Source: Marsupella aquatica
Taxonomy: Eukaryota > Plantae > Marchantiophyta
Assembly (NCBI GenBank): GCA_973895155.1
Contig: OZ316897.1
Coordinates: forward strand, 18,014,457 to 18,078,456
Length of the DNA: 64,000 bases
Reading direction: 5' to 3'
The stretch's first letter is position 1. Each line of letters opens with the position of its first letter. The notes under the pieces were generated by a model. It did not search any database and had not been told where the DNA came from. It saw only the letters and a list, made by a program, of their open reading frames with translations. This document shows, one piece after another, positions 6,559-36,406 of this stretch. Both the position numbers and the translations under genes were made by a program.

Positions 6559-7364
6559 TTGGGCAACATGAGAACTCCGGGGGAGAGATCAGAGTTTAAT
6601 CGCAAGCGATATGCTCAAAACAAGGATGCCATAAATGCAAGGCGTCGGCAACGATACGCCCAACAACGGTTGCAAGGTGGGAATGTTGTGCACCAGGTCC
6701 ATGCCGCACCCGAGCAAAGTGTCTCGCCCAGTGTGGGGCCCTTGGTTTCTGCAGTACTTCCCACACCATGTGTGCCAACTGTTGTAGAAGAACCGAGGGC
6801 CATTAGTGGCAGACAATTGCGACGGGAAGCAAGGGTTGTACGAGGGGCATCAACAATATCATTGCCCCCCATTGAGGAGACAACTTTGGGACCTACTACA
6901 GTGCCTGGCCGTGCAAGTAGTGTGAGACAATTGCTTCATGAAGCAAGGGGGATGCACCAGGCATTGGCCAGATCCATGGCAATGAGGGCCAATCGAGACG
7001 GTGCCAGTGGTGCCTTGGATGCATGTGAGATTGACCACCCTTTGGAGCAATTTGTGCCTACCCCTCCATGTGAGCCCGTAGCCAACAATGAGCCCAGAGA
7101 TCCCAATGTCTTTGATGAGGATTGGCTCATTCATGGAGCTTTACAGGATGGAGCTGACTCGATGTGTGTCATCCCTACCTGTGAAGCGATACCAAACAGT
7201 GTATGAGCTGACCCTGACATCTTTGACGAGGATTGGCTCATTGATGGTGCCTTGCATGGGGAAGCGGGTCCTATTGTTCACGATGGTGGTGGTCACTTTG
7301 ACACATTTATTGAGGGCACCTTACGTTTGTCAGATGAAGAGGGAGAACAAGAGATTGAGGATAT
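6559..7364 (+). pseudogene. Helitron RepHel N-terminal part (piece 1)
   Basis: Basic NRKRYAQ...ARRRQRY start and a repeated DPxxFDEDWLIxGAL motif. One in-frame TGA at 7204; the frame then runs on to ...EEGEQEIEDI at the CACTA insertion point. Confidence 0.7.
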
Positions 7365-10300
7365 CACTAGAAGAAACCGAGCCATTCTGAGACCCAGCCT
7401 TACATGACTTGTGTGAGACCTTTGAAAATAAGTGACTCCAAGGTTTAGGGTGTCATCTTTGTTACATCTTCTTGACTCACTTTTGGTGAAGTTCTGGGAA
7501 GTCATGTATTTAACTATTGGGAAAGTTGCTTCTGTAACTGAGTTAAGGCAAGTATATTGAAGTTATATAAGTGACCATGACTTACATGATTTCCTTGCCC
7601 AATACATATGATTTTGGATCCATCATATTAATCACATTATGTCATGCAATTATATATAGTTACCTCCCTTTGCTTTAACCATCACTGAGTTGCTCTTTAT
7701 TGTTCCCCTGTAAGAAAGTATACATGACATTTTTACCCTAATTGAAGTTTAGGTAAGTAGGGCAAATTTGTGATTCTAGCTAGACAAGAACCAACCAAAT
7801 TTAAGTTAACATTCATGTACACGGCCGCAACTGAGTTCAAAAAGGTGTGAAAATTTGTGCCATGCCCCCAAAAATAATGATGCACCCTAAACCCTAATAC
7901 TCTACATACATAGTTACCTTAAAAAAGTCACCACAACCAATTAGTGGTACTTGTCACATACTGCTCACACACATATTAAAACTCACCGAGGAATGTCAGA
8001 CTTGGGCCTGCTTTCATGACTGCTTTCATGACTGCTTTTGGGTGTTGTTTTTTGCCATCTGGGTGACTTAGGATATTTATCTAACCCAATGACTATACCC
8101 AAAATACCCAACTAAAAGCCCCCCCCCCCAAAAAAATGCATGCACCCTTGGTCTTAGTTACCGTTTAATCCTAACTGTGAACTTACGTCTATATGTGTTA
8201 GGTGCTTGCAGAATGCCTATGAACGAGTCCTTCCAGTCGACTCAATGTTTAGGGTAAACGGATTTTGTAAAGGAAAATTGCACAAAGTGTCGACGGCTAC
8301 CACCAGGGTTTTCCTTCACGTTTCTGCAAGGGAATCCAAGGCCAAACACTTTGCGCCCGATAATGCACTTTTCCTCAGTTGCTCTCGACTCTTGCACCTG
8401 ATCGCACTCAGTCAATACATTTAGCGCTTTTGGAGGTGGGATTTCATGTCATTGCATAGGGCTTGGAGCTTCGACCTTTGGTATATGACCCATTGTCGAC
8501 TGCAATCTCACTATAGGGTTTAGGTGGGCCCTAAATCTTACATTCGTCTTTCCTGTGGTGACAACGCGGGTGCTAAGGTGTATAGGAGCAAGGTTGTCGG
8601 GAGGTTTATCGCGGATGACTGGCGATTGGTGAGGCCTATTTGCATTCATCTCCACTATCATTGGGTACCCGAGATACAACGATCGACCTTCTATACAGAG
8701 GCGAGGAAGTGACGAGAACCTACAACTCTTTGCGGGAATGCGTGGTCTTCTGCTTACCTGATTGCCCTCATGCTTGACTGTAAATACATTAGTAAAGTTT
8801 TGCTTTGGCTCAACTTTGGTCTTTTTTGGCCTTGCGTGACTGCGCTCACTTCTCTCGGTTTCCAGTGTGCAGTTGGCTAAAGACCTGGATGTCATGCTGT
8901 GAGTGCAAGCTGCTAGTAGTTGTCCATAGCTTGGGGAAAGCGGTGGGGACTGAGGCCACAAAGGAGTTTGACCTGCGCTTTTTTTTCTTTGCAGCAAGAG
9001 CGAGAGTGAGACGAGTTGCAAATTGAGTTTCATTGAGCTGCTGCCTTGGGCTTGGCGGAGGTCCTACACTCTTGTGTTGCTCACTTGTTCAGCTGCGGTG
9101 GGAGTGGGCTTTTGGTAGTGACCTGTTCAGTTGCAGTGGGAGCTGACAACTTTGGTGGCTGTGGTGTTGAGCTTCTGAGGAGGGCAAGCAACTGCGTGAT
9201 GTGCCCTTGAGTGAATGTCTCTTGGAGGAGCTGCGAAGTGGTGAAAGGGGAAGGAGGTGAGCTTGGGCCTGGAAGCAATGTGCTTCTCCAACATTTTTGC
9301 ACAATGCAATGCTGCTCAATCGTTTATCCTTCCTCTAAAGCTGAGTGTGACGCATCGACCTTTGACGGGAGTATCTGCATTACAGTTTGCTACATACGGC
9401 TGCTCTCTGTGTGGCAATCGCCAATAGCTAGCACAATGGAGGGTTCGACGTCAACTTTGAGTCATTGATCAGTGCACACTACATTGCTCTCCCTTTGCTA
9501 AACCCTTTCTTTTGGCTTGGTTCTTGGTGCCTTTGGCATAGGAGCGACGTTATTGCTAATCAACTCCCGAATCAACTTTGGAGGTGCGGGTTAGAAGGGG
9601 TTGGAGAGAGGAGGTCCAAACCGAGAATGCCCTTCACCGTCAACGGTTTCTACTAGTCCCGGCCATGCAGCTGAAAGTGCGCTTCTTTCAGGTGTCGTAG
9701 CATTCTGCCAGCCGGGTGCTTGGACTGCAGAGAAGAGCAGCCACAGTCATTGAGTTCTTCTCCTAGCTCAGCTGCGCATTGTCAACCATCGAGCGCTGCT
9801 GCGCGCTAGCTGTGAACCCCAAGAGGAGCTGCGACAAGGAGGAGATGCAACCAAGAGGAGATGCGACGAAGAGGAGATGCGACCAAGAGAAGCTGCTGCA
9901 TCCCACATTGAGTTGGACATTGAGGTAGGGACGTGAGCTACGCACTTTCAACCATCAAGCAACCACCAAGCTCGGCAGCGCTCTGGGATTTGTTGGCCAC
10001 AGCAGACAAAGCGGAAGACAAAGGTGAGTGTTCGTGCACCGTTAGAGTAACCGCAAGTACTCTATTACATGCCTCGTTGTTCTCTATTACATGCCTTGTT
10101 CTCCCGCCCACTGTTTCCTGCGATTTTCTTTCTTCCATAAGAGAATGGTGATTTCTTCTTCTATCAAACAAAACCCCACCCAACCACCACACAAGAACGT
10201 GGGGTGCGCGCTTCTTAATCCTCCTCAAACTGGCCCATTGTTCATTGAAACCCCACATATTACCCACCGGCACCAAGGGTCCAGTCCCAACCCGTCTTCC

Positions 10301-12019
10301 GCTCCCCACCATCTTCACTCTCTCGCGCATCTATCTCCTGAACGGCGTCGCTCTCCCTTAGACGCAGAATGCTCCGCTGTGATATTGCCTCGAACTTTTC
10401 TAGTGCAGTCTAGGCAATTAGACTGCTTTTGCGAAAACTGCCCTTCTTAAAAGTGAGCAATACTAATAAGCCCCGGGGGTGGAGCGTTTGTTACGATGGC
10501 CGTGGACCTACCGTGGGCTATGGTAGAACACTCTATTGTCTATGATGATTCTGAATCTGCTTGAACTGCGAGTGGATGTGCTTTAAGGCAAACTTGTCGG
10601 AGAAATTAGAATGGGGGGACGGAGCTGTCAGTGCTTAGGTTGTGGCATTTTTGAGATTGTCAAGAGTAATCTGTGATCTCATTTCTAAATGGTTTGAGCT
10701 CCTCTGATGTGCATAGGAATCGGGCTGAGGAAAGCTTTTGGGAGCTATCATCGGAACTAGCTTTCGATCTATTTCTGCTACTTTTGAATTGGTACTTGGG
10801 AAGGCTTTGTATCGTTAAGCACTACAAGATTCACAGGCCAGACCTGCTTGCTAGTATGAGGGGCTTTGAAGGAATGTGTGGCTAGGGCTGATTAAGTATG
10901 GATTAATTTTGCATTGCCTGAGATACTAAAACTGCCACCCGCTTTGTTTCAATGCCTTTGATATTAATTGTTAATATCTCAAGAGGGTTGTCAACTAAGC
11001 TGAAAGGAGTCAAAGCTAACTACAAGCTAGCAAATACAGAGAATGCTCCCAAGTCGAGTCAGGAGGAAGTTACTAAAACTAGACCTTCACAACTCTCGAA
11101 ACTGGAAAGTGAAATTCAGCGTGAGACACGTAGCTGAAGGCCACAAGGATAACTATATGGCCACGCTGTCCCCCATTCAAGTCCAAAGTCCTCTTCAGAT
11201 TGTCTGAACTCCTATTGAATGTATTGAATAATTATTTCATCACAGAAATTTTCAAAACAAACACGGAAGCACCAGGGGGCTGAGGATTGGATATTGAGGC
11301 TGAAGACATTGAGGTCATAAACTAGGTGTGGTTCGGGTGACAATGTTAGCAACTGATGCTTCTTCAGGGGAACTTCCCATGTGCAGTTTATCCACACATG
11401 ATTGACTTTGGTTCTTGCTGTTTTTCTTTTGGTGTACTCTTGAGTTTGGTGTCACTCTATCCTTTCCTGTAGCCTCGAAATAGGAACACACCTGCTTAGT
11501 GGTCCCCAATCGCCCAATGATTTATAATGACTGTGTCTAGGTGATGTATGCATTGCGTGTTCATTCCAGAAGAATGAATATGTACACTTTGCACAAACCT
11601 GGACAGATTTTGAATGTTATTTATCTGAGTTTCTGTTTGTGAGCTCTGACTTGGAGCCTTAACATTTGTGTTTCTGTGGGGCTGAGCAGAGTTTGTTCCG
11701 TCTAGAAGCTGCTGTACTGAAGTGATCAGCCTCCGGCTTGGAGGTGAATCTTCAATTTTTTGTGGATCCGAGTGACTTCTGTCCAGCTGAGTTTTGCTTT
11801 GTCGGGACGATTGTGTTTGGCTAAGATGCTAGATTGTGGCTTATCTTCTTGCTTCCAGCTTGTGTATTTTCAATTAATAGAAGTTGGGAACGAAGTGATA
11901 ATTGAATTTCCTTATATTAAGCATCTTCACCTAGAAACTCAATACATAAACTCCAGGATTCCCTCGGGACATAAAATGAGCCAAATTGTCTCAAAATTGG
12001 GAACCTGCACCCGCACTAC

Positions 12020-12311
12020 TCAAACAATTGTGTTGGGCTTGGTGGCCTTGTAAGTCTTCTTTAGCTTTCGCAATGGAGGTTGAATCTTGCAGTACATCAA
12101 GGGGAACTTGATCTTTGAATCATGGAACTGCTTGGTACTTTCTCGCTTGCACAGAGAGACAGGGACTGTCGTAGTCTTCATGATCTGGATGCAAGGGAAC
12201 CGAACTCTATGACAAGAAGCCATCTCATCATACATCTGCTCTGCAGCTCCGTTTCTTGTGGTATCACAATATTCCTTGTACATGTTGTGATAACCTGTAC
12301 GACTCTGATAC
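12020..12311 (-). pseudogene. RPL18A: Captured C-terminal fragment of 60S ribosomal protein L18a (eL20)
   Basis: [46 protein letters not shown]...[18 protein letters not shown]...[12 protein letters not shown] matches the conserved plant eL20 C-terminal half; the N-terminal half is absent. Confidence 0.9.
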
Positions 12312-13370
12312 GTGGACCCAGATACCGAAGTTCTTAATTGTGGTGGGCTTCTTTTTGAAGATCTGGTAGACACATTATTCAGCATTTGCTAACTTCGAAA
12401 CTAGAAGGGTAACACATTAAACAACAGAGAAACTCACAACATCCTCCTTTGGTCCTTCAGAGTCTGTACTTTGATTCTGAAGTTTGACTGAGTTTTTGTT
12501 TACTAAAAGAATGTGACTGTGTAAGAGTTCCGTTTGGCAGTGGATTGGTTGAAGCACTTCATGCTAGTGTGTTGTCCAAAGCTCTTCAACCAGCTTTCGT
12601 CTTCCTTGTCTTTCACCACTTACGATGACATCAATTCAGCTAAGACCATAGAAGGTTCCAAAGCATCTAACTTGTAAAATCGCATTCTGTTACATCAAGG
12701 ACTAAGGTGTTGGGTGCCAAAGGAGACAGCACAACAAACACGCTAAAAAGACTTCAGGACTGGGTTCAACAAGGTAGTGAAGGTGCTTAGAGCCATAGTA
12801 AGTATGCATTCTGTATCTTTCTCTGTTGATGTGAGCTTGTGCATAATGGGAGTTGTAGTTGGCAAGAGTTCCAAATATGAATAGATCCAGAAGTATGTGA
12901 TCATGTACTTGCTCTATAAAGTTCTGAAGATATAAGCATTTTCTGTTAGACCAGGCAACTTGGGAGTTGGTAAGTGTCACCTGCATCTGAGGGGCTACAC
13001 CGGGGCATCAGTGGAGGTTCACTTGCACAACACGACAACCAGTGAATTTTCTCTCTGCTGCAACCTGCAAGGTGAGACTTTCGGTCTTTCTGGATGAAAA
13101 AACAGGAATTTAATATGATTGATATACATGTCCATCGAGAATATGGGTTTATCACCAAGCTCTTTGTCTTAGGAAACTCATAAACTCAGAATCAAATATG
13201 TACTATGCACGTTTCATGCTATGTGTATACTATGACCTGTAGTTGGAACCAAGACAATGAGTGGGAACTGATTAGTTTAGGTGGTTGCTGTTGGCGAGGC
13301 AAGTCGACCTCCTGCTCACCTTGCTCATCAAAGGACGTGAACAGAGGACATCACAACGAAAGCAACACTT

Positions 13371-13820
13371 ATGGTGAGGACCCGCAACGCTAAACATGTG
13401 CGACTTGCACGCAAGGCAGAGATGTTGCGCCTTGAGTATGTCAGACTTGGGATCCTTCCAGCCCAGTCTGCATGGTACTTTGAGTACCCTGTTGTTTCCA
13501 GGAAAAACTACAGCCGGCCTCTACCTGCTTCAGTACCCTTCCCGACATCCTTGGTATTTGTGTCTCTTGTACATGACCCGCCACAAATTAGGTGCCAAGG
13601 GTGTGTACACAGTTGCCAATATGACTGTCCTGCCTGTAGGGCTTCTGGCCCAGAATTGGATGACCGTTCTCTTGGATGCCGATTTTTGCACAGAGCACAA
13701 TGTATCATCTGGAACCACTCGCCATCCTGCAGTGTGCCTGGTGATGTCACTTGTCCTGCCCTCCCAGACCCCACCACCGGTGACTTTGGTGTCTACACAT
13801 GTTTGGATCACATGCTCTAG
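13371..13820 (+). CDS. Small Cys/His-rich protein of unknown function (CACTA cargo), possibly zinc-binding
   Basis: 149-aa ATG-started ORF with a basic N-terminus and CQGC..C...CPAC....C..LH..QC...C...C..H; same strand as the neighbouring cargo ORFs. Confidence 0.45.
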   Translation: MVRTRNAKHVRLARKAEMLRLEYVRLGILPAQSAWYFEYPVVSRKNYSRPLPASVPFPTSLVFVSLVHDPPQIRCQGCVHSCQYDCPACRASGPELDDRSLGCRFLHRAQCIIWNHSPSCSVPGDVTCPALPDPTTGDFGVYTCLDHML

Positions 13821-14435
13821 AGGACCACTTGTCACACCGCATGCACAGACCAGATACCATTGACCTATAGCTTAACACTCTGACTTCAACACAGAGGATA
13901 TTTACTTAAAATTTTGATGTATGAGCAATTTTGGGTCCAGGGTTTAGGGTCAACAGTACATAACTTATATCCTATTATGCCTGCACTAAGCAAAATATCC
14001 TAATTTAAGAGGCTAGCAAACTCGCATAAAAGTCTCTATTGAAAGACTGCTTTCATGACTGCTTTAACCTGGTGAACATTGCAACGTTGAATGAATTAAT
14101 GGGCCATGTGATAATATGCAAAATGATTTATGCCTCACTTATTTGTCTCAGCCACTATCATAACCTATTTAGGATGTATAAATTTCAACCCTTATGACAC
14201 TGCTTCATACCAATCCTCTTCGAAGAATGCCTGTTTTACATGTCACGACTATTGTATGTGATTCAAATGCATGAAATGTTGTTGCAGATCTCCTTTGGTG
14301 AATCATAGCCACAATTAAAATTGAGGTGTTGGTGGAGAAATTGTATTAGGGGATCAGTTTTGTGTGTGGGCTCAACATACCAAAAGTATGTGTGCTCTGC
14401 ATCCTTGTGTGGCCATTCCAATTCATTGCAGTAGC

Positions 14436-14651
14436 AAATGCCTTTGTACCTTAAATGCTAAATATATTTTACTTTCTGTGCAGTCTGCTAAATTATAGAG
14501 TCTATCTAAATGCCTTTGTACCTTAAATGCTAAATATATTTTACTTTCTATGTAGTCTGCTAAATTGTAGAGTCTATCTAAATGCCTTTGTACCTTAAAT
14601 GCTAAATATATTTTACTTTCTATGCAGTCTGCTAAATTGTAGAGTCTATCT
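14436..14651 (+). repeat. 3 x 72-bp tandem repeat immediately upstream of the PHD ORF
   Basis: Unit aaatgcctttgtaccttaaatgctaaatatattttactttct...agagtctatct starts at 14436, 14508 and 14580; followed by a putative acceptor gcgcag|gcATG. Confidence 0.9.
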
Positions 14652-14662
14652 CATGCGCAGGC

Positions 14663-15343
14663 ATGGCACGGCCTAAAATTCAAGCCAAAAAGCGTGTGAT
14701 AGAGGTGAGAAACACAGGTGTACTTGGGGCAGATGCTACTAACTTCTCTGCAAGTCAGATTTTCCAGAAGGCAGCTCATTGTTGTGCCATTTGTGACGAT
14801 GGTGGGGGCCTGGTCATTTGTGAGGGCCCTTGCATGAGGCATTTCCACCTCAACCCGGAGTCTAACCTTGCTGCAGAAAACAACTGTCCAGGGGTGGGCC
14901 TCCCGTCAACACACCAGGGAGACTGGATGTGCACTGATTGTTTGGAGAAGCAGGCTAAGTGTGCACAGTGTGGGAAGTTGGGGTCCTATGAGGGCTCTGT
15001 TGATGCTGCAGCAAATGTTAGGAAATGTCCAGACCGTTTTTGTGTGAGATTTTTCTGTTTTGAGTGTTTGCCTGCTCATGCCACAGCTTGCCCACTTCAT
15101 AGGTGCAAGGCATGTGGTGAGCATGATGATGACTACTGGACTGACATAGTCCACTGTGCTAGGTGTCCCACTATGTGGCACTATCATTGCCTGAAAGATC
15201 ATCAAGCAGAGGGTTATGCTTGTGACAGAGAAATCTATGATCACTCTGCACATGGTGTTGATCGATGGATATTTTATTGTCATCGCCATGCCATTGATCC
15301 TACCTCGCGCACTCCTGTGAGAGATCACATATCTTGGCTATGA
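14663..15343 (+). CDS. Stand-alone EDM2/NSD-type composite PHD-finger protein
   Basis: CAICDDGGGLVICEGPCMRHFH; WMCTDCLEKQAKCAQCGKLGS; CPLHRCKAC...HCARCPTMWHYHCL; and RWIFYCHRHAIDPTSRTPVRDHI, which parallels the EDM2 motif (LIYCxxHEIDxxLxTPVRDH) closing its PHD cassette. Uninterrupted 226-aa ORF. Confidence 0.85.
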   Translation: MARPKIQAKKRVIEVRNTGVLGADATNFSASQIFQKAAHCCAICDDGGGLVICEGPCMRHFHLNPESNLAAENNCPGVGLPSTHQGDWMCTDCLEKQAKCAQCGKLGSYEGSVDAAANVRKCPDRFCVRFFCFECLPAHATACPLHRCKACGEHDDDYWTDIVHCARCPTMWHYHCLKDHQAEGYACDREIYDHSAHGVDRWIFYCHRHAIDPTSRTPVRDHISWL

Positions 15344-15935
15344 AGCTGAACATTGTACATGCACAGTGCACCTGATGTGGATGTACTATTTTTTGAGATT
15401 GCAGAGATTTCAATTTTGAAAAGGAGTTGGGTAGGCGAGTTTATATAGGCAGCACTTATCTTGTGCTCTGGCGTCAGTGGCTGGGTACATGCCTATACAA
15501 ACTTATCCTTACAAGCCTTCTTGGAAGTATTTAGGCTGAGTGGTCATTTTCATAAACACTTTCATCAGACTGCTAAATTAAAACAGGACTTCTAAGTTGT
15601 AAGCGTATAAATTATCAGGCATGCAATTAATCAAATTGCCCTATAAGTTTGTCATTGAATGTATCCTCCTTTACAACAAAATATGTATGTGCCATGACAA
15701 GTTGGTTGCACTTCATTTCACCACGGATATGGATTTTGTAGTATATATTCAAACAATGTCCTGCATCCGTGCAGGTGCCTAGTACGTATTGTTCACATAT
15801 CCCTTGTACCTATCAAAATCGGACCTGAGCACCAGTGGGCCAGATCAACTCAAAAAGCAGGAATTTTGTTGTCCTTGTATTGTCAGGTGAACCCATTCTT
15901 CCAAAATTCACTGTCATCACGTAGAGTGTGTGTAC

Positions 15936-16808
15936 ATGGAGCCTGGTAAACGTAGAAAGTGTGACCACTCAGCAGTGTTTACAGGGGTCAGAGCGATTTT
16001 GGTCCATGGCCAGCATGGGTTGACCAAAGTGCATTGGCCAACTGTACAGAAACGATTCTCTGAGCTCCATGGCACTGTAGTTCAGGACATCACTCCAGAG
16101 ACTACACATGTTGTTGCAGGGACATGGCTATCAGTGATAAAGAAGTGGTCATGGTCCTACATGAATTCTGCAATTACTAAGCAAGGCCTAAAAGTAGTTG
16201 AGGCCTCTTGGATCACAGATTCCATAGCACATAAGATTGTACAGGATACTGAGCAATATGAGTTGTGGGAGGATGAAGAAGCTACTGCATCAGCTTGGGC
16301 TGAACAAGAAGTCTGGGAAGCAAAGGCACGGCTTGCTGATCTCCAATATGGACCTGTACTCAACAAAGGACAGAGCTCTACAAGGCTGAAGAGTATGTTG
16401 GCTGAGGAGACGAAGCAACCAACCCCCATTCTGAAAGGGCTGAGCATGGTATTTGTGGAGGCGGGAATTGGAGAGGTTAAGTGCAAAGTGTACAAGTCCA
16501 CAGTGCTTGACCTAGGTGGGACAGTGGAGGAGAATATAACAGAGGACACCACTCATGTCATTACTAAGTCATATCCCAAAGCCTGCCGCAAGTTTGGGAA
16601 GGGAGACATTCGCTTTTATGTCATGTCCCATAATGTGTTTGTGGTTTCATATGCTTGGCTTGTGGAATCAGTAGCAGCTGGGAAGCGTCAAAACCCAATG
16701 GACTATGATCTTTTTGAGGCCTGGCCACGGAAGGGTCAGGATCCTTACAGAGAGGACTATGAGACAACAAGTGAGGAATGGGTCATTAGCGATTCTGAAT
16801 CAGAGTGA
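15936..16808 (+). CDS. Tandem BRCT-domain protein resembling the DNA polymerase lambda BRCT
   Basis: Two repeats: FTGVRAILV...LHGTVVQDITPETTHVV...VVEASWITDSI...YEL and LKGLSMVFVEAGI...LGGTVEENITEDTTHVI...VVSYAWLVESVAAGKRQNPMDYDL. Both show BRCT GG/THV/WxxxS-type signatures; no polymerase domain. Confidence 0.82.
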   Translation: MEPGKRRKCDHSAVFTGVRAILVHGQHGLTKVHWPTVQKRFSELHGTVVQDITPETTHVVAGTWLSVIKKWSWSYMNSAITKQGLKVVEASWITDSIAHKIVQDTEQYELWEDEEATASAWAEQEVWEAKARLADLQYGPVLNKGQSSTRLKSMLAEETKQPTPILKGLSMVFVEAGIGEVKCKVYKSTVLDLGGTVEENITEDTTHVITKSYPKACRKFGKGDIRFYVMSHNVFVVSYAWLVESVAAGKRQNPMDYDLFEAWPRKGQDPYREDYETTSEEWVISDSESE

Positions 16809-17241
16809 GGAGTAGTAGCATCAGTTTGGACACAAGTTTTTTTGTATAAATCAGATCATTGAAATAAATGTGATCTTTGAACTAATGTACCTTGTTATGG
16901 TTGGTGGCAGTTGGGCTTATTTTACTGTTGGCGGATTGTTGTTTCCTGCTGCCTGGGGGTGTCACTGTAAACGTACATGCAGAGGCGGTACATTTGAGGA
17001 CAGCGGAGGAGGTGGTGACACCCTCCAACATTTAGGAATTTTGTGTCATTCACTTGACAATAGGTACACTACTTGCGAACCTGTTTTTTTCTTTTGGGGT
17101 GGTTTAGGGTTTGTGAGAATTTAGTACACGTTATGTTAACTCTTTTGGCAGATACAGTCAGGGATATATGGAACACAAATACCACCATTAGGCATCCTTG
17201 TTCACTGCTGTCCATGACTGCAGAGCTCCCAGCCTGTTACA

Positions 17242-20200
17242 ATGCACCCTGGTCACCACCCTCCCCAGACCCAACCCAGGGCACAGGCACTGCCTTTGCA
17301 TCATCCCACAAGGATATCACGCCATGATAATAAGCTTTGGCAGCGTGAAAGGTTACGAACCAGACTTTCAGGAGCCAGTAGGATGAGATGTCCTTGTGCA
17401 ATCTGCCAAGGATCCCGTACCAGGGGTCTGAATGAGGTTTGGCGGCATATCGCGGTTCATGGAAGAGATCCACGACATCGAGTTTGGAATGATCCTGCAG
17501 AGGAAGATTCTTCCGACGAGGAGTGGAGGTTAGAATTTGATGCTGCCAATGCTGCAAGACGGGCAAGTGAGGTTCTGCCTGGTGCATTTGAAAATGTTGT
17601 AGCTGGTCTCTGTGGGTTGTCAGCTCTCCAACGGGATGGTGCTCAGGCAGCACCACGTGACGAAGGAATTCATGTGGAAGAGATGGTGAGAGACATCTTC
17701 CAAGACTTGGATGCATTTCATGATGGGCTGGACAATGAAGAGGATACGGCTGCAGATGCAAGTGTGCCCCCTGTCGAAGAGCCTCTTGATGAGTTTGAGA
17801 TAGGGCAGGAAACCCCTGGGCATGATGGGATGTTTGGCTCTCCCCTGCAAATACAGGAAGGCAAGAAGTCTTTGTACCCCGGTAGCAAATGTTCTAAACT
17901 GGGATTTGTCATCATGTTCCTGAACATTTGCGGCAACCACAATGTCCCCAACGTTTTGGTTTCTGAGTTGTTGGCATTCTTGCGAACAACTGTGCTACCA
18001 GATGGTAATATTTTGCCCAAGAACATGTACGAGGCAAAAAGATGCATATCTAATCTTGGATTGAACTATGATTCGATCCATGCCTGTCCTGATGGGCATG
18101 TTCTTTTCAGAAAGGAGTATAAAGAATCGTTGACATGCCCTAAGTGTGGGAAGCACAGGTATCGGAACTCAGGAAAGTCTATGGTTCCCGCCAAGGTACT
18201 TCGTCATTTTCCACTCATTCCCAGACTTCAGCGGATGTTCAGAAGCCGTGCCATCTCGGAGATGATGACTTGGGCAACTGACAAGAAAAGTGATGATGGG
18301 CTACAACGACATGCTGTAGATTCAAGGCAATGGAAACTCATAGATGAGATGTATCCCGAATTTGCTGCTGAGCCGAGGAATGTCAGACTTGGGCTGTCAT
18401 TGGATGGGGTAAACCCATTTGGAGACAAGAACAACAAATTTTCGTGCTGGCCTGTAACTATTTTGAATTATAACCTTCCTCCTTGGATGACTACAAAGCG
18501 ATTTTTTGTTCTGATGGTCCTACTGATACCAGGGCCAGACAGTGCTGTATCTGCCAACATAGATGTGTTTCTGGCTCCCCTAGTGGAGGAATTGAGAAAG
18601 CTTTGGGAGGAAGGAGTTCTCACATATGATGTCCTACAGAGGCTTGGGAGGTTAAACCCATTCATCCTTAGAGCCATTGTCATTCTGACTATAGCTGACT
18701 ACCCAGCCCATGGGATGATATCAGGCCAAACAACAAAAGGATATTGTGCTTGTACTATCTGTGGGCGCAATGTCACCAGTGAGTACTCCAGAGCCCTGCA
18801 GAAAGTGATATACATGGGCCATCGTCGTTTTCTGAAGGCAGATCACCCTTACAGAGAAAGACAGGCACTGATTGCACACTTTGGCAATGAGATTGAGCAA
18901 CGTGGACCCCCGGCACGAGTGACCAAAGAGGAGATCAGGCAGTGGGGAGCACTGAGGGATGACTATATCAAACGAGGGGGCAGGGAAGATGGAGTGAGTG
19001 ATCCAATAAAGCGATATGGTGTAAAAAGACTGAGCATATTGGACTTGGAGCTCAAGTACTGGAGGGTAAGCCTCTTGGAGTTGATGCTAATTGGGATACA
19101 TGTTTTGGTTCAGAGCATGTGCATTCATTTCGAAGAGAGAGACTAAACTTGAGGCATTTCCTGACGCTTTTGCATTGCAACGATGCAGGAGTTTGAGCCA
19201 AGCAAACATAACATTGATGTTATGCACATTGAAAAGAATATTTGTGAGAGTCTACTCAGATTCTTGTGTGGAGAGAAAGACACTGGTTCAGTGAGATTGG
19301 ATCTTGAACAGAGGGGAATGAAACCCCATCTTTGGTTGAGGCCACATGCCCACAGAGCTGATGTGCTCTTGAAGTACCAAGCGCCCTATGTTCTGACAGA
19401 CACAGAGTGGGAACTATTTGTGCAGAGGTTGAGTTCTTTGAAGGTTCCTTCAAACTATGGCAGTGCTTTCAAGAAGCATATCATGACTAGAAAGCTTGGT
19501 AGTATGAAAAGCCATGACTACCATATGTTGATGCAATAGGTGTTGCCTTTATGCCTGAGGGGCCTGTTGTAGAAGCCTGTTCGTACTGTGATCATGCGAC
19601 TCAGTGATGTGTTTCGTCGTATTTGTGTGAAGGTTTGGGATGAAACACACTTCCCACAACTGACAGAAGATGTCGCTCAGGTGCTGTGTGACCTGGAGAT
19701 TTATTTTCCTCCCACATTTTTTGATGTCATGACCCACCTACTTGTCCATGTTGTGGAAGAGCTACACCAATTTGGGCCTGTGAGTGCTTGGTTGTACCCT
19801 TTGGAACGGTACATGAAGCTACTCAAAGGTCACGTGAGAACATATTACAAACCTGAAGCAAGCATGGCTAAAGGTTACATCAAGGATGAGACTCTGGGAT
19901 TTCTGACCGAATACATAGCACAATATGAGCATGTGAAGACCAGGGTGTGGAATTCTGATGAGGAGGAAGGGGTGATAGGTGAAGTACTGGAAGGGGCTGC
20001 AACCACAAAGAACCTGACCATATCTATGAGAGACTTGGCACATGACTTTGTATTGCACAACACTGTGGTGATGGAACCCTGGATACAGTGAGTGCATACA
20101 TGTGCTATAATCCAGTTCATGAGCTTAAATGTTGTGTTCGTGTGGTTTTCTCCTTCAGCCTGTTCATGTTTACCCAAGCTAATGCTGTGTGGTTGTTCGT

Positions 20201-20970
20201 TCAGGGAGTATGAGTCATTGAAGGCGGCCCATCCCACTGCAGGAACAACTTTTCCAGGTTTCATGGAGTGGATCAGAGTGGCAATTAGAGAGCATCACGA
20301 GACCCACCCAGACATGGATGCAGATGTTTACCTACTGTCTAATGCCCCTAGCCTGAAAGTGAAGACTTACAAACGGATGAGAGCATATGGGAATCACTTC
20401 CGAGTGAAGGATGGTGACAGTGCCTACAGGGTGATGAATGACTGCGGGCTCATCACTGTATTTGAGCAACAGAGCCACAATCATGACAGGGCCTGGATGG
20501 AGATGGGATATGTGGGAGAATTAGTTGACATATGGGCTCTGGACTATGGGGCGGTGTCCAGTCCTGTGATTCTTATGAAAGGTTCATGGGTGCGGCAGGA
20601 TTGGCTTGGTAACAGGGCTACCATGAAGAGAGACAACGACGGTTTCTTGCTGGCCAATTTCAGAGGGAAATTGCCCGAATGGTCTGAGCCATTTGTGTTT
20701 CCTAGTCAGGTGGAGCAAGCTTTCTTCTTGGATGTGGAAGACTCCCCAGGTTGGCGTGTAGTGTGTCATAAACAGGCCAGGCAACGTCGGATGGAAGGAT
20801 CAAACCTTGAGTTTCATTTACACTCTCATAGTGCCTTTGATCGTTGGCGTTCAGACCAAGTGCCTGTAGTTCATGATAGCGGGGACTTCATTCCTGTGAC
20901 AAGGGTAGATGCATTTGCTGAAGGAGGCGAATTCAGAGATGCAAATGCCAACAGTGTGCCTGTGCCATGA
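17242..20970 (+). pseudogene. CACTA TnpD/Tnp2 transposase, 3 exons, with nonsense lesions
   Basis: MRCPCAIC; YDSIHACPDGHVLFRKEY; LRHFPLIPRLQRMF; RNVRLGLSLDGVNPFG; DYPAHG...KGYCAC; DVMHIEKNICE; MKSHDYH; FPPTFFDVMTHL; EPFVFPSQVEQAFF. Predicted introns ~19067-19188 and ~20088-20204; in-frame TAG at 19537 and ~19570. Confidence 0.92.
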
Positions 20971-21126
20971 GTAATGTGAATTGTTTGCATGGACATTAGT
21001 GAGGGGAAGGATGTGTAATAAAGTAATTCTGAAGCAACACAGATGTATGGATGGATGCCTGGTGATTGTGGTTGCATTGTGTTATACGGGGTGACCATAG
21101 ATGACATGTTTTTGTGGTCCAGTAGG

Positions 21127-24100
21127 ATGGAACAGAGTGACACAGAGATGTGTGAGTATGAAAGGAAAGCTATGGAACAACGAGCATACGTGAAAGCCAA
21201 AATCGCAGAACTGGATCTGGAAAAGGATGTGGCTGAATTGTAAGGGAACGATTCTCAACTACACCCCTCCGCTGAGTTTGTGTGACATGAATAGTTCAAT
21301 GTGGCACTGAAATTGTGACTGTATTCTCATATTGGAATGTCGCAGAGCCACAACATTTTCAAAGAAACAAAAGGAGTACACAAGAAGGGTGACCAACACT
21401 ATCTCTGGGCCTGTGCGTCGGAGTGACAGGTTGAGCAAGAAGGTCGTACCTACAATGGCAGAATGTGGAGATGACATTGATGCTGCACAGGTGGGTGCAG
21501 ACACTAGACAAGAAGATGCAGATGATGAGTATTTTCCAAAGGAAATGGATGAGGATGGGGGTTATGAAGATGAATACATTGCAGAGCAGCCCCAAAAGAA
21601 ACATGTAAGTAGTTTTCCCAACAAGGTTTTGAGTTAAAAACTCTTGTTTAGAGGTTTCATATGTTCAGTACTACACATATGTACCTTGCTTAGTTCCTGA
21701 CATTGTAGTTGGTGATGTGATGCAGCGTCCTGCCAGTTCTATTTTGCCTTCGAAGCCTGTGCATGCACCATACCAGCAGGGGGGCTGACCTCTGATCAAG
21801 GTTGGCGAGGTGGTAGTAGTGGTAGATCCCAGGCTGGTGCCCAATACTATGGCAGGGGGCAAGCTCTAGGTTATGCCCGTGGTAGAGGCAGAGCAGGTCC
21901 AAACCCACAATCTCGTGGGTATGGACGTCCACCTCAACCATGGGGATGTGAGTATATATCTATATGCCAGTTCTTTGTGAAGGCATGGCACTCCTGAATT
22001 TCAGACTGCATATCAATTTTTGACATTGTTTGGGATGTATTGGGTTCAGACAACATGAAATTCTGTCCACCTGCCATTGCATGCAGATTCTGCCCAACCT
22101 GATTGGGCAAATGCTAGTAATGATCAGTTCCAATGTCCACAAGGACAGACATGGGTTGAACCAGGTTGGGAGGATGGTGGTGGGTCGTGGAATGAACAAG
22201 GTTGGGAAGGTGGTGAAGGTAATTGGCAGGGATATCAAAATTCAGTACCTACAAACGCTGGAAGAGGAGCAGGTAATGTCTGATCTTGTCAGCAATGGAA
22301 GAACTCATTATATGTGGAGTCCATTCACGTGGGGGGGACTCTGCACATGTATAATGATAGAAAATGTATGTGTGCAGGTTGGACAGTCGAACCATCGACT
22401 CAAGTATTCACTAATGCCCCTATGCAGATGCAGCACGGAAGGGGGACAGGTATGTCGGTGAATGTTCAGTTGTTTTCCTACAGTTTGTACTTAGTTTTCA
22501 GTACATATGTTTGCACACACATACCTAGAAAGTGACATCATCCGGCCCCTGTACTAGGCTGGACAGGTGGTCCAGGGTCGCAACAATTTCAGAGTGCAGT
22601 CCCTGCACAGGCATCTACAGGCAGAGCTATAGGTATGTATGTTTGAAGAATTTTTCTTGAAGTGAAGCATTGAATGTTGCCGTCATCCATTCTGCTATAT
22701 GTAGTTCTCAAGCATGAATGGCATTGTATTTTCCCAGGTGGCTTCAGAACCCCAGGTAGGGTGAATGAAGGGGTGGCCAATACAACGCCCAGTACTACCG
22801 AGAGCAGTGCACGAGGGGAGGTGACAAAGAAAGGGAACGTAAAGTTGAATGAGAGATAATGGGTGGATGCTGAGTGTCCTCGCAAGAACCAATGGCATGC
22901 TGATTTGAAAGCTGAAGTATTGCGTTGGTTAGATGTGAGTGTTATTAATTTTAAAAAACAGCATCCAAAAGATTGGAAGACTGTATGTGAAAATGTTGCT
23001 GCCAAATGGAATTATGTGGGCAGTGATGATGGCGTGGACATAGGTTGCCTAGAGAGTACAGCAGGTAAAATTATCAAGCAAGAGAGGTGGAGAATGCATA
23101 AGGCTTGGAAGGAAGGTGGGGAGAAGCCAGATATGCCTCCACCAGCCAGTTGTGATGATAAAGTGTGGGCAAGGTTAGTAGCTTCAAAAAAGAAGAGTTC
23201 ACAGATGACTGAGGCCAGGTTGAGTGTTCAGAACCCTAATCTGACAGGAAGGACCGGCACTGCACCGACAGCTAAACGTTTGGTAAGAATGAATGGCCTA
23301 GCTATGTAATTTATGCTACACTATGTACTATTTTTTAGTGTAAACCCATACATGTAAACTTTGTTTTTTAGTGTACGTTCCTTGAATATTGATCGATAAC
23401 TTGTGTTTGCCATGCATGTGCAGAAAGCCCAATTGGGGCAAAGCCCTTCAAAAGAAGAGTTGAGGGCTGAAATTGTGAACACCCGGGCTCAAGAGGGTGC
23501 ATCTGAATCCTCCAAGCATGTAAGTTATATGAGTTCTGATTGGTAATTGAATGACCTGCGTTGAATTTCAGGTGTACACTGTATATAACATTGATTGTGC
23601 ATATATTGCCCAACATTTCATATGGAGTGATTGAACCTATACCCCTGTGTCATGTAGGGAGGTGGATCTTCACTTACAGAGATAAGTGGTCGTTTGAAGG
23701 CTGTCGAAACATGTCTTCCAAAGATCAATGAACGTTTGAATTCATTGACTGACTTGTTCCATGTGAACTTCAAGACATTAATGGAAGCTGTTGTGTCGGT
23801 GAGAGATAAAATTGATTCCAATTCTGCAGGAGTTCCACCATCACCACTTGAGGTGGCAAAGTCGATGCACTCTTCTGGCATGCCAACGACATGTAGGCTT
23901 GAAGGTAAGGCCTTTACAACTGTGTGGGATATGATTATTAAATGTATAGTTTGAATTGACATTGTTTGTTGAATGTGTTATTTTCAATAACATATATTGT
24001 GGTTGTTGTGTCCATAGAGAATAAGACAGGTGCTACAGAGAAGAAGTATGAGAACCTGGCAAATACTCGCTATAATTTAGAGGCAACAAAGTTGCAGTCT

Positions 24101-24814
24101 GTACAAGCAACTTGTTTGACAGAGGGCAGTCAACCATGTTTGGATGAGGATGACATTGGCAAGGGAGTGGATGATATCAATGTTGGGGCAAATGAGGATA
24201 TCAGCAAGCATGACAATGATACCATTGAGCCAGATTCATGCTATGTAGATCTTGACTCCATTGCAGAGATAAATGATTTGCAGAATGTATCATTCTCAAT
24301 GACAGGTGTGCCTCTTGTTGAGATAAATCCAACCAAAGAGTTAGTTGGTATGACACTCCCAGGTGATGAACCTGCTACTGTGACAGTCCTAACAGAGGAA
24401 CCTACTGAGCCTAGCTTCACTACTGTGAAGAGAGGAAGCATGCGCACACGAAGCAAGTCTGCTGGTGGGAGCAGAGCCACGTCAAAGGTTTCATACAAAC
24501 CTCCAAGAACAGTGCTGGCAAAAAGATCTAAGGTGGAAGTGGGGAAAGCACCTAATGCTGAGGGACAAAGTGGCTTGTTAGCTGTTGATGAGAGTGGAAC
24601 ACGAGTAGGATTTGCCAGAGTGCAGGTTGGTTCCACAACGTTCCATGGCAAGAGGATTCCCCCAGGTTATTCAGTAGTGTTAGTCACATTACTAGTGAAA
24701 CCTAAAGCTGTCCTTCCCATTCCAAACACAAATGATGATCCTCCTCAAAAGACACTTGGAGATGCTGCAGGTTCTTTGGTATTATGGCCAAGCAAGTTCA
24801 TAGAGGATCCATAA
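21127..24814 (+). CDS. CACTA TnpA-like multi-exon accessory gene with a C-terminal DUF8039/Tnp1-like domain
   Basis: Series of short GT-AG exons downstream of TnpD; last exon ends VGFARVQVGSTTFHGKRIPPGYSVVLV...LPIPN..DDPPQKTLGDAAGSLVLWPSKFI, typical of CACTA ORF2 products. Confidence 0.65.
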
Positions 24815-25353
24815 CAATGTCATGCCATTATTTGTTTGTAGTGTGAGTCATGTTATGTAGATTTTAGATGTCAAGAAGCAGTACAAGAATCATGTCCTCT
24901 TGGAGATTCATAGTATCATGCATGTGCTTTCAGTTATCTCATCCTACAGTCATCAATTATGAGTTCCTGTTTTGTCTAAATTACATTGATCACATTGTAA
25001 ACTATTCCATTGGAATTCAAATGATCTTCATTTTTTAGCAAGATTGTGATTGTGTTTAATTCTTATGAATGTTTTATGTAGGATCTGCTTATATGATGCT
25101 TTGTTTCATGTGGATGTCATTCATGCTATGTTCATTTCTTGTATTCAATGTGTTATATTTCTAAAGTTAGAACATCAGGTTTCTATGTATTGTAATGTCG
25201 AGTGCTCTCTCTCCTTATGAACTGTCCCTCTGTGTTCATTAGTCATGGTTATAACTTGCATGTGAACCTTATTAGTTATAAACATGAGTATATAGAGTCC
25301 CAAATGGTTTTGTTGTGTGACGCGGGCCAGGGTCTCCATTGGTCTCTCCTGTG

Positions 25354-25640
25354 ACACTAAATAGTCACACGCTAGTCGTTGTTGAATGCGGGTAAGTCAT
25401 GTATGTGACTTACGATGTGACTCGCTGAAGTCATATTGCAGTCACGTCGAAACAAGGCTAGACTCCACAATAAAGTCACAGATCAGTCACAAATGGGTAT
25501 CAAGCAAGTTGCAAAGCCCAGTATCAATAGTGACTTCCATTTTTTGGTCTCAACTTTTGCAACTCCAAGGGTCACAGCGTGGGTCAAGTCACGTTGAGTC
25601 ACAATGAAGTCACATGAGCCAAAATGAGTCATATATTGCG
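25354..25640. repeat. CACTA subterminal repeats (AGTCAC/GTGACT)
   Basis: Dense cluster of agtcac/gtgact/agtcat hexamers just inside the right TIR; matching tgact copies at ~7400-7500. Confidence 0.7.
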
Positions 25641-25669
25641 GTCTCAGTTCACCTCAGATTCTTCTAGTG

Positions 25670-26230
25670 ATATCCTCCAACAAGAATTGGGAGGGAGTAA
25701 CCTTGCACCAGTTACCCCGGCTCAACCCAGTGCAGAAGATATTTTGAGAGAGCGTCAAAGATTGGAGCAAATACAAAGTTTGCCAAAGGCACGACAACCT
25801 TTGGATCCTTCGATGGGTCGACACATTTTGGGACGGATGAACATTGAGTGTTCATGTTGTAAAGCTCTTCATTGGATTGAAGAGTGCAAGTCCGGAACAC
25901 AACGCCATCCGTGCTTCACGATGTGTTGTGCCGATGGGAAGGTGGATTTGCCTCCAATTGGTGCTCCTCCAGAGCCTTTGCGGAGTTTGTTGACTGGAAG
26001 TAACGTTGCGGCTACAACCTTTCGGAAGAATATTAGAGGGTACAATAATGCCTTGGCTTTTACATCAATAGGTGTTAAAATTGATGAAAGGGGGGGCAAC
26101 CAGGGTCCGTATTCATTTCGCATACAAGGAGCTTTATATCATCGGGCCGACAGCCTCTTGCCGCCTGATGGAGAGGGTCCCAAGTTTGCTCAACTCTATA
26201 TTCATGACACGGGGAATGAGTTGGGCAACA
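25670..26230 (+). pseudogene. Helitron RepHel piece 2 (zinc-finger-like region)
   Basis: LGRMNIECSCCKALHWIEE...CCADGKVDLPP...FRKNIRGYNNALAFTSIG...FRIQGALYH...PKFAQLYIHD, then a putative GT donor at ~26231. Confidence 0.9.
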
Positions 26231-26688: not shown

Positions 26689-27822
26689 CTAAACAAAGTG
26701 CTCCTTACAATATTTATTTGAGCACGTGTCTTTGTCTCCTTTACTATCTACCCTAATGTCACAGTTGCAACTCCCTTTATCTTCAGGGAGATGAAATTTG
26801 GTGGTGTTGTTCCTAACTGCTATAATCTCCCGCAAAAAGTGTCTGGGATTTTCTCTATACAGACCTGAATATTCCTGTCCTACAAATGATCTAGCAAGTG
26901 AGGTGACAAGTGCATCGTCAAGTTCCACCTCAGGACGTAAGCTACATATACGGTGCTTCACAGCCCAAGGAATCTCATTGCTATTGAGGTCCAGCACACT
27001 ATGCCTATACTGTGACTTCCAAATTTTTGCTGCACATCTCTTACTAAGTTGATCATAAGTAATCTCATTTTTTGCCTTGTCTCTCTTAATGTGCAATAGA
27101 GACCACTTTGGAGAGTTTAGGAGAAGATAACAACGAATGTCACTTGCATGTGACAGTTTCTCAAGACATGGCCAAAGAATTGTTAGAAGAAAATTGTCTC
27201 CACGATTGGCATGCGTGTAGGACACTGGAAATAGTCCGGTCATGTCTGGGTTGGCAAATGCCTTCAAGGGGGAGTCATCCACAAGGAGTGTGTTGGTTTC
27301 ATCATATAGATTTCCAAATGCACTCCATACCACCCAAAAATCCTTCAATAGCACATTTGCCTTTCCATTTGTAATGTCACGCCTTTGAATGCCTGTGTCA
27401 AAGGCTTCCACCTGTGTGAATACAAACTTCAGTTTCAACCGCTCCTCAATTGTGAACATCATGTTCAACATTTTCACTGTTCGCGGCATCCCAACACATG
27501 TCCAAATTGCAACGTCAAACCTGTCAAAAACCAACTTTAGAAACTCATGGAGCCCTGGCCTCTCTGTATACATGCGACTAGTTCCATTTGATCTATCCCA
27601 ATGCACTCCACTTGAGGTGACAATATTCCTGGATGTGCCCTTGCTTTGGAATTCAATAGAATCCCAAAGTATTTTATTAAGGTCCAAAATCAGCAACTTC
27701 CGCTTGAGGGGACCAGGTCTCGATTTTGCAAGTGCACCAAACACCATTCTCAGAGACAAGACCAAAAGTGAACTTTGGATTAGGATTGTCTCAGTCCAAA
27801 AATACAAGACAATGGCTGACAA
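26689..27822 (-). CDS. FCP1/SCP (NIF)-family HAD phosphatase-like protein, TE cargo
   Basis: KRKLLILDLNKIL (motif I variant), RPGLHEFLKLVFDRFDVAIWT, LLKDFWVVW, YDETNTLLVDDSPLKAFANP. Open 377-codon frame; true start may be in an upstream exon. Confidence 0.8.
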   Translation of the reverse strand: MSAIVLYFWTETILIQSSLLVLSLRMVFGALAKSRPGPLKRKLLILDLNKILWDSIEFQSKGTSRNIVTSSGVHWDRSNGTSRMYTERPGLHEFLKLVFDRFDVAIWTCVGMPRTVKMLNMMFTIEERLKLKFVFTQVEAFDTGIQRRDITNGKANVLLKDFWVVWSAFGNLYDETNTLLVDDSPLKAFANPDMTGLFPVSYTHANRGDNFLLTILWPCLEKLSHASDIRCYLLLNSPKWSLLHIKRDKAKNEITYDQLSKRCAAKIWKSQYRHSVLDLNSNEIPWAVKHRICSLRPEVELDDALVTSLARSFVGQEYSGLYRENPRHFLREIIAVRNNTTKFHLPEDKGSCNCDIRVDSKGDKDTCSNKYCKEHFV

Positions 27823-29112
27823 AAAAGAAAATTAACCTACATACCGTTTTTAGAAGCCTCACAATGTGTAGACGGATATGGAGACTTTAATTGGTGAGCG
27901 CATTCTGTGAGACCGAGAAGTATTTTAGATTGATATGAATAAATACAAAGTCAAAGGCTGAATTTCATCCCAAAATAAGAGATCCGTATTCATCAATAAT
28001 CATGTCAGTACCAAGCTCCTGTTGGATTTCAAAATTGACATCTGAAGTACTTTGTTCTACCCAATAAGGTGAAGTCCAAACAGGAGTTATCAACCCCAAT
28101 TCTCCACTCTTATACTCCTCCTTATTGAGAATTGAAGGAGCAGCATCCAATGATATTTCTTGGCCTCGATTTGGCCCACTTTTCCACACGTAACATCGTG
28201 CGTCGCATTCCAATGACCTCCATCCAGTTGATCCAACTCTATTTCCTTTCTTTTTTGAGAGCGGAAGGACAATAGGACTCCCCGAGTGTGAACGAACGAA
28301 CACCAATTTGTCATCAGAAGCTGAAAAGAGTGTGTCAGGACAAGTTGAAGCACCTGCCTGGTTGTCAGCAGCCGTTGATGCATTTCCTCCTGGATTGATC
28401 GGAATGTTAGGCAATCCGCCAGTCTCCCCCTCGGTCTCCCCCCGAGTCAATTCTTTAGTTTCAGCTTCATTTGAATCTCCGAGCCTCGTTGCGCCTTCAT
28501 TGATCAGATTGGTTGAAGAAAGATGATCAAACGTATCAACCCTTGCTCCTTCCAATTGCTCCATCTGTCATCCCGGCGTTGTTGGATTGGGATCATCCTT
28601 GTCCAAGTTATCATCAACTTGAACTTCATTGGGCCCCGGAGGGATGTCATCTAAACCAGATGAACGGTTTGGTGCAAGTCCAATATCATCATCTACATCG
28701 TAAGGCTCACCTTGACCAACATGGTCATCCAAATTCTTGACATATGCCTCCTCTGATGCCTCTACGCCTTCAGCCACTTTGTCAGCAACATCTTCAGACT
28801 CAGAACCATCGGATTCAACAGCGACAGCTACAGCCGCAATAGTGGTAGCCCATTGTCGAGAATTTTCAGCAAGTGATTCACAATGAGCTTTAAGTGAGGG
28901 AACTCTCTCGCAAAGGTAGGAAGCAAAAGCTTCCACAAAATGCCTCTCGGAGTGAGAGTCACAATAAACAAAGCATTCCCTATCGCAAAAAAATGATGTC
29001 TTCATGACTTGGCCACCGGAGAAGAAATCTAGAACCAAATCTCCCGGTTCTGACAAGGATTCAATAATCCTTTGGATCATCCGCGTGGGTTTGGCATGAG
29101 GATTAACCCACC

Positions 29113-31943: not shown

Positions 31944-32340
31944 CGGACTGAGACCATCCCAGTCCAACATAGAACTAGACAGTATTAGTGGAAATATTCT
32001 ATTGAATGTGCATGATTTAGTTTGGACTGGGACCATCCCAGTCCAGAACAAAACTAGACAGTATTAGTGAAAAAAAAATCTATTGAATGTGTATGAATCC
32101 ATTTGGACTGGGACCATCCTAGTCCAACGCAAAACTAGGCGATATCAGTGGAAATATTCTATTGAATGTGCATGAATCCATTTGGACTGGGACCATCCCA
32201 GTCCAACACAAAACTAGACAATATCAGTGGACAAAGATTCTACTGAATGTGCATGAATCCATTTGGACTGGGACCATCCCAGTCCAACGCAAAACTAGGT
32301 GATATCACTGGAAATATTCTACTGAATGTGCATGAATCTA
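31944..32340. repeat. ~5 x ~80-bp tandem repeat containing the palindrome GGACTGGGACCATCCCAGTCC
   Basis: Units at ~31945, 32022, 32103, 32182 and 32263; lies in a predicted intron of the ParB/MTase gene. Confidence 0.85.
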
Positions 32341-34119: not shown

Positions 34120-34405
34120 GATTAGGATGGTCCTAGTCCAACTTGAGATGGTTTTAGACTTGCTCCTACAATCGGGATTCAATCTCCTAGATGGATTAGG
34201 ATCATCCGAGTCCAAGTTTGGATTGGGATGGTCCGAGTCCAAGTTTGGATTGGGATGGTTCGAGTCCAAGTTTGGATTGGGATGGTCCGAGTCCAAGTTT
34301 GGATTGGGATGGTCCGAGTCCAAGTTTGGATTGGGATGGTCCGAGTCCAACTTTGGATTGGGATGGTCCGAGTCCAACTTTGGACTCGGATGGTCCCAGT
34401 CCTCT
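34120..34405. repeat. 27-bp tandem array GGATTGGGATGGTCCGAGTCCAAGTTT
   Basis: About 8-9 near-identical units carrying the same imperfect palindrome as the 80-bp repeat, in opposite orientation. Confidence 0.9.
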
Positions 34406-36365: not shown

Positions 36366-36406
36366 CAAAATTTGCATGAGTTTGGTTTTAATCCATTTTT
36401 TTCAGT

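Follow-up and report, generated by a model that had tools for sequence, protein, structure and literature searches.

A CACTA transposon of the liverwort Marsupella aquatica carries a probable long-retained cassette of three accessory genes, including an EDM2-derived PHD module and a double BRCT protein

A window of 64,000 nucleotides from Marsupella aquatica (contig OZ316897.1, positions 18,014,457 to 18,078,456) was analyzed; all coordinates below are positions within this window. It contains an 18.3-kb CACTA element (7365-25669) that holds a cassette of three open reading frames (ORFs), ORF1 (13371-13820), ORF2 (14663-15343) and ORF3 (15936-16808), ahead of its transposase. We consider it highly probable that these ORFs are old accessory genes of this CACTA family that have been kept under selection. 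They were judged to be old and selected, and not recent captures, because their homologues have the same length, the stand-alone relatives of ORF2 form one long-stemmed clade, and insertions and deletions (indels) avoid the ORFs. An initial annotation of the sequence had described three compact, co-oriented open ORFs upstream of the transposase, and all three were indeed found to lie on the plus strand, to be free of stop codons and to consist of a single exon. The term "intronless" used there applies to the coding parts but not beyond them, as acceptor-like AG dinucleotides are present 35 and 49 bases before the starts of ORF2 and ORF3, respectively. These sites suggest possible spliced leaders or separate 5' noncoding exons. 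En/Spm elements employ alternative splicing as well as separate tandem genes (PMC13547354).

The boundaries of the element place the cassette within it. The left terminal inverted repeat (7365-7409, plus strand) begins with CACTA and matches the right end at 12 of the first 13 bases, and the right subterminal region with its terminal inverted repeat occupies 25365-25669 on the minus strand. A 6-base subterminal motif occurs nine times in these last 305 bases, while its complement occurs 3 to 4 times per 500 bases at the left end and 0 to 2 times inside, as counted without a shuffle control. CACTA terminal inverted repeats, subterminal repeats and the domains of TnpD, all hallmarks of CACTA/EnSpm elements, were thus seen together. 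A single Helitron-like frame extends over both flanks, and the empty site is present in run X1, with joints 7359-25672 and 7359-25674 that leave a 12-base site and fit a 4-bp duplication. Since the CACTA ends match, the flanks share a Helitron-like frame and X1 holds an empty site, the cassette lies inside the element. The copies of the apparent 4-bp target duplication are located at 7361-7364, within the palindromic site of the Helitron-like reading frame, and at 25670-25673. Four bases are repeated around a single insertion in the palindrome, a pattern with which a 3-bp duplication plus one added base is also compatible. The insertion target is a perfect 12-bp palindrome in the Helitron-like gene (7357-7364 plus 25670-25677).

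ORF2 encodes a stand-alone EDM2-type multi-PHD module of 226 amino acids with an H3-like N terminus. Comparison with Pfam gave three NSD-type PHD matches, each under the curated cut-off, and Cys or His was present at 24 of 24 ligand positions checked. A profile search of 1.84 billion representatives yielded 564 matches at E 0.001, among which stand-alone proteins of about 170 to 245 amino acids outranked the long EDM2 proteins. The same profile retrieved long proteins named EDM2 in Selaginella and Neltuma, which bears out the EDM2-PHD identity proposed in the initial annotation; the best long relatives include liverwort proteins. Identity between ORF2 and the long host EDM2-like proteins was 28 to 35%, in line with the strong divergence from host counterparts that had been noted for the cassette. 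ORF2 shares with EDM2 and EDM2-like proteins the atypical multi-PHD module and the C-terminal motif (PMC7529245). It is without EDM2's N-terminal region, acidic stretches and methyltransferase-like domain (PMC7529245), and the clade to which it belongs has PHD-module changes of its own. EDM2 itself, with acidic regions and a methyltransferase-like domain, promotes full-length transcripts across intronic heterochromatin (PMC7529245). Loss of these parts is general, as ORF2 and all full-length stand-alone relatives end at the PHD module, with the N-terminal region and the methyltransferase-like ELP domain absent. A confident AlphaFold2 model of ORF2 (predicted local distance difference test score [pLDDT] 87, predicted template modeling score 0.82) resembled PZP and NSD PHD-C5HCH structures and other multi-PHD folds, with a best E of 2e-4 and low global TM-scores. 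These sequence comparisons support a derivation of ORF2 from the EDM2 family, of which, with the other EDM2 domains gone, it is not a member. Three 72-bp tandem copies, each with an acceptor-like site, directly precede the ORF (14436-14651).

All three ORFs have relatives that equal them in length and begin at the same point, and even distant ones keep both the length and the zinc ligands. For ORF2 there were five among 110 candidates (82, 75, 53, 38 and 37% identity), for ORF1 two among 44 (56 and 54%, one with an upstream extension) and for ORF3 two among 1259 (60 and 54%). A domain tree was built from 42 sequences, drawn from 150 listed matches and the first homologues with most angiosperm sequences and short fragments omitted, and was rooted on three nonplant sequences. 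Within the plant EDM2-like group, the ten stand-alone ORF2 sequences formed one clade (bootstrap 100, Shimodaira-Hasegawa-like approximate likelihood ratio test 99) on a stem of 1.0 change per site. A quick tree of 61 sequences agreed, grouping 11 stand-alone sequences at 99. Motifs suggested the short liverwort-type EDM2-like proteins as a possible sister of this clade; the rooted tree gave no resolved sister. All 17 stand-alone relatives that were looked up came from Logan, JGI or ENA only, without one annotated genome among their sources. Frameshifts occur in several of them. Both features would be expected of transposon genes that are masked as repeats.

The cassette was also followed across sequencing runs. 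The region spanning cassette and transposase (12900-21100) was covered in 30 of 30 bins in each of four runs, which come from three studies and carry three organism labels. All of the 12 best-supported among 52 indels in the four runs avoided the ORFs (P 8e-4, given that 45% of the region is coding), a test that is weakened by its reliance on these best-supported and mutually nonindependent cases. Further observations weigh against an old and selected cassette. The coding changes listed within it number four, three of them nonsynonymous, a number that allows no judgment; ORF2 and ORF3 also occur in the runs in deleted form; and no distant homologue was placed beside a transposase, since a metagenome scan returned 11 loci with host-type or unrelated PHD proteins and two viral scans for distant homologues found none. 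On balance, the part of the initial annotation that called these genes long-retained accessory genes is upheld, while the word "domesticated" is not apt, because the direction is one of co-option from host to transposon.

The transposase, TnpD (17242-20970, plus strand), has three predicted exons and the domains Transpos_assoc, Transposase_21, DUF4218 and DUF4216. Transposase_21 (E 4e-70) and DUF4218 (E 1e-25) were matched in Pfam, and Transpos_assoc and DUF4216 fell below the cut-off. As had been noted initially, TnpD of the window copy carries two nonsense codons, TAG at 19537-19539 and at 19570-19572; one codon is also missing near 19787. The stop at 19570 reads C at full depth (CAG, Gln) in all four runs, and the codon missing near 19787 is present in X1. 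Between X1 and the window there were 186 majority differences over 19.1 kb, of which 75 were A>G or T>C, as would be expected if the window copy decayed by deamination. With 64 stop-prone codons in the cassette and 93 in TnpD, the chance that both stops fall in TnpD is P 0.35 and that none falls in the cassette is P 0.25. Open ORFs beside a stop-bearing TnpD, which the initial annotation had used as an argument, are therefore uninformative in the window copy, because at least one TnpD stop is private and the pattern arises by chance with a P of about 0.25 to 0.35. Downstream of TnpD, a multiexon region with open exons (21100-24814, plus strand) gave no Pfam match at E 2; by its position and general likeness it is a candidate TnpA-like region.

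The ligand-binding features of ORF2 were compared between stand-alone and host proteins. PHD fingers use acidic residues to bind unmodified K4 and an aromatic cage to bind K4me3 (PMC10124903). In the four positions that precede the first PHD Cys, an acidic residue was found in 0 of 12 stand-alone sequences versus 14 of 14 host sequences, and a cage tryptophan before the PHD1 His was not seen in the stand-alone sequences. With the acidic residue lost and no cage tryptophan present, neither canonical K4 pocket is evident, and both observations weigh against a histone-reading function. The clade further differs by a PHD2 His-to-Cys change (11 of 12 stand-alone versus 0 of 13 host sequences) and by the loss of an insert of about 20 to 30 residues in the PHD module. 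An acidic residue after the third PHD1 Cys and an aromatic residue before the last Cys pair, which we presume to be the anchors of H3 A1/R2, are kept in 12 of 12 stand-alone sequences.

The N terminus of ORF2 (14663-14695) would read A-R-x-K after removal of Met, with a second Lys at position 9, a start that we take to be an H3-tail-like motif. Among 20 stand-alone sequences, 13 start with M-x-R, and of these, 10 have Lys4 and 6 have both Lys4 and Lys9, while M-A-R-x-K begins only 3 of 136 longer proteins. The structural model places strand bridges at residues 2 and 6-7. An A-R-x-K start meets the pattern of H3 N-terminal mimics (PMC8166343), and it may instead be a plain basic import signal. 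The conserved residues make an H3-like tail the likely ligand of ORF2, perhaps in the form of its own N terminus, as the A1/R2 anchor residues are kept and many members of the clade start with A-R-x-K. The histone state that it reads probably differs from that read by host EDM2. The clade-wide loss of the acidic residue ahead of PHD1 leaves the initial label "heterochromatin reader" unproven, and the joint "toolkit" proposed with it is likewise hypothetical.

ORF3 (plus strand, 290 amino acids) contains two BRCT repeats at about residues 10-113 and 161-261, separated by a linker of about 50 residues. Each passed the Pfam cut-off when scanned singly, in agreement with the tandem BRCT assigned initially. 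BRCT1 and BRCT2 resemble one another (24% identity, 2 gaps, E 4e-12), and this mutual likeness points to a likely internal duplication. Matches in the PDB were weak and generic (BRCA1, Rtt107 and LIG4), and X-family polymerases were absent among the 31 and 35 PDB matches obtained at E up to 1; a Pol-lambda origin is plausible but hypothetical. In phosphopeptide-binding tandem BRCTs of the BRCA1 type, the first repeat has a Ser/Thr-Gly pocket and the linker is short. In ORF3, the long linker carries a conserved acidic stretch, and the position that we take to be the phosphate pocket of the first BRCT is not conserved, being H, P and S in three sequences, which tells against an adaptor of that type. 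AlphaFold2 run on three sequences gave no usable fold (pLDDT 34).

ORF1 (plus strand, 149 amino acids) is a family-less Cys/His-rich protein and a predicted zinc binder, and had no match in Pfam or the PDB. Seven ligand columns of Cys/His type, together with further His, are kept in all three aligned sequences. An apparent likeness between the end of ORF1 and 17150-17320 was dropped, as no tblastn match was obtained.

We give about even odds to a model in which ORF1-3 work as noncatalytic adaptors for chromatin binding and repair recruitment. Under this model, the three genes would be expressed, probably via separate 5' noncoding exons. The EDM2-derived PHD protein, ORF2, would tether the machinery of the element to nucleosomes, and the double BRCT protein, ORF3, would bring end-joining repair to the sites of cutting and insertion. 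ORF2 would be bridged to TnpA/TnpD, possibly via ORF1; such a bridge is the simplest arrangement, because a reader without a catalytic or DNA-binding domain helps its own element only if linked to it. A more specific scenario is put forward tentatively, as one possibility among several. In it, a CACTA lineage of seed-free plants would long have kept a mini-EDM2, with a rewired histone pocket and an H3-mimic N terminus that gates or decoys the PHD module, together with a home-made double-BRCT repair adaptor, forming the first pure reader/repair-adaptor cassette and steering both chromatin choice and repair.

ORF2 could alternatively be an anti-silencing, truncated EDM2 that competes with or redirects host EDM2-ASI1-AIPP1, so that the long element is transcribed full-length through silenced chromatin. 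Besides binding H3K9me2 chromatin, host EDM2 holds back proximal polyadenylation (PMC7529245); its effect on transcripts is positive for COPIA4 and negative for Mu1 (PMC3632883). The element would suit such a factor, being long, with at least five tandem genes, and CG-depleted (CpG observed/expected of 0.23 to 0.41 in the ORFs). However, a domain for sequence-specific DNA binding, which could restrict anti-silencing to the element itself, is absent from ORF2; simple competition for the same ligand is hard to square with the PHD-module changes shared across the clade (the lost acidic residue, PHD2 His to Cys and the lost insert); and ORF3 is left unexplained. We therefore regard this explanation as unlikely, although it is the stronger of those that compete with the adaptor model.

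It is slightly less likely again that the three genes are selected but functionally unrelated, with ORF2 acting as a protein-binding scaffold or self-inhibited decoy that reads no histone and belongs to no joint toolkit. The want of either kind of canonical K4 pocket in the ORF2 clade is consistent with this explanation. In all four runs, moreover, summed contig depth was higher over ORF1 and ORF2 than over ORF3, a weak hint, depth being no copy number, that these two are shared by further families. Against it stand the conservation of the putative H3-anchoring residues in every one of the 12 sequences and the fact that runs with three different organism labels cover ORF1-3 jointly with TnpD.

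Neutral drift of host fragments that were recently captured in Pack-type fashion is very improbable. In its favor, the same element contains a broken near-host gene piece, and chance suffices to explain the open frames in the window copy. However, relatives that are intact and share start and stop positions persist at 37 to 44% identity while long host proteins reach only 28 to 35%, and both the single long-stemmed clade and the avoidance of ORFs by indels contradict neutral capture. The view that these are not recent Pack-type captures, already taken in the initial annotation, is strengthened accordingly. Nor does the element resemble a Pack-CACTA, as TnpD is present (with 19570 intact in other copies) and ORF2 is distant from the long host proteins; only the RPL18a piece fits. 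This RPL18a/eL20 fragment (about 12020-12560, minus strand; covered in run X1) is intronless and broken by a stop and a frameshift, and is near plant eL20 (E 4e-48), as had been recognized at the outset. It is an ordinary decaying host capture and a fair contrast to the cassette.

Several known transposons invite comparison. Red-algal Plavaka elements, of the same EnSpm/CACTA superfamily and 17 to 19 kb long, carry three accessory genes (PAG1-3) next to the transposase, of which one has no known function, and show long retention (10.1101/2025.02.11.637652). Their PAG2 and PAG3 act as enzymes or bind DNA, PAG2 combining an adenine methylase with SET and PAG3 combining ParB with a 2OG oxygenase (10.1101/2025.02.11.637652), whereas the cargo described here is noncatalytic; scans of ORF1-3 found no methylase-SET or ParB-oxygenase domains as in the PAG cassette. 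The main text of the Plavaka report is without mention of PHD or BRCT, and its supplements may list further accessory domains (10.1101/2025.02.11.637652). In the Mutator-like VANDAL elements, VANC and KIU/Ulp1 are likewise co-opted host chromatin-related domains kept as separate genes (PMC13317346, PMC13547354). VANDALs differ from the present element in superfamily, and VANC both recognizes DNA motifs and brings about hypomethylation (PMC13317346, PMC13547354); the domain content of ORF1-3 suggests neither activity. Selected accessory genes thus have precedent in PAG1-3 (10.1101/2025.02.11.637652) and in VANC and KIU (PMC13317346). Angiosperm CACTA elements, with TnpD, TnpA and an optional Peptidase_C48, share the CACTA ends and the same four TnpD domains, but their extra domains lie in ORF2/TnpA and not in an upstream cassette, and their target duplication is 3 bp as opposed to the apparent 4 bp here (PMC8978399).

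A literature search made outside Repbase and, for the most part, outside subscription journals found no CACTA cargo of PHD/EDM2 or BRCT type. In RAG-like transposons, the RAG2-like partner of the transposase bears a PHD; this Kelch-PHD protein belongs to an animal, Transib-derived system, and its PHD type is unrelated to that of ORF2. Three-gene accessory cassettes are already known from Plavaka, and co-opted host domains from VANDAL and angiosperm CACTA elements; cargo of EDM2-PHD and BRCT type would be an addition to these. It bears on the open question of what lets DNA transposons persist, and find their targets, in plant genomes under silencing. To our knowledge, VANC is the only plant anti-silencing cargo that has been tested. 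EDM2 enables the host to transcribe genes through heterochromatin. Its transposon-borne derivative and the transposon-borne BRCT pair are encoded by small single-exon genes, which are amenable to expression or deletion. A direct test thus becomes possible of the idea that transposable elements supply chromatin readers and repair adaptors of their own.

Some features of the element and its family were noted in addition. Over the left 3 kb (7637-10800), summed contig depth in run X1 was 230 to 900, compared with at least 1800 over the cassette and transposase, which hints at a variable 5' part among family members. Reading contig depth as copy number was rejected. Contigs of near-equal depth (about 1910 to 1960) in X1 align with the cassette spacer but with TnpD only in patches (14049-14118, 15306 and 18009-20677); they hint at a second, diverged family with the same cassette, the linkage itself being hypothetical. 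Near the left end, exact pieces of 21 to 22 bp lie side by side in the manner of filler DNA, 7986-8007 being identical to 18373-18394 in TnpD and 8018-8038 to 14045-14065 in the cassette spacer. Runs X7-X9 contained near-identical pieces at low depth only and were not counted as other hosts.

Other elements are present elsewhere in the window. A Ty3-type long terminal repeat (LTR) retrotransposon (50996-63733) has identical 300-bp LTR stretches, long gag and pol ORFs and a further ORF of 857 amino acids without a Pfam match. A neighboring element (26689-40816) contains a DNA methylase fragment (PF01555, E 7e-7, 28571-29125) that is split from its front part, a NIF phosphatase ORF and a DUF7869 transposase. 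Arrays of a 27-bp self-inverted unit occupy 34192-34402 and 35637-36360, and an ORF at 32576-33211, which had no Pfam match, is presumably ParB-like by its motif. This content echoes the description of red-algal Plavaka PAG2 and PAG3 (10.1101/2025.02.11.637652). The DUF7869 transposase is split by an 843-bp CACTA miniature inverted-repeat transposable element (38383-39225), which is flanked by a 3-bp duplication and whose ends resemble the left end of the large element.

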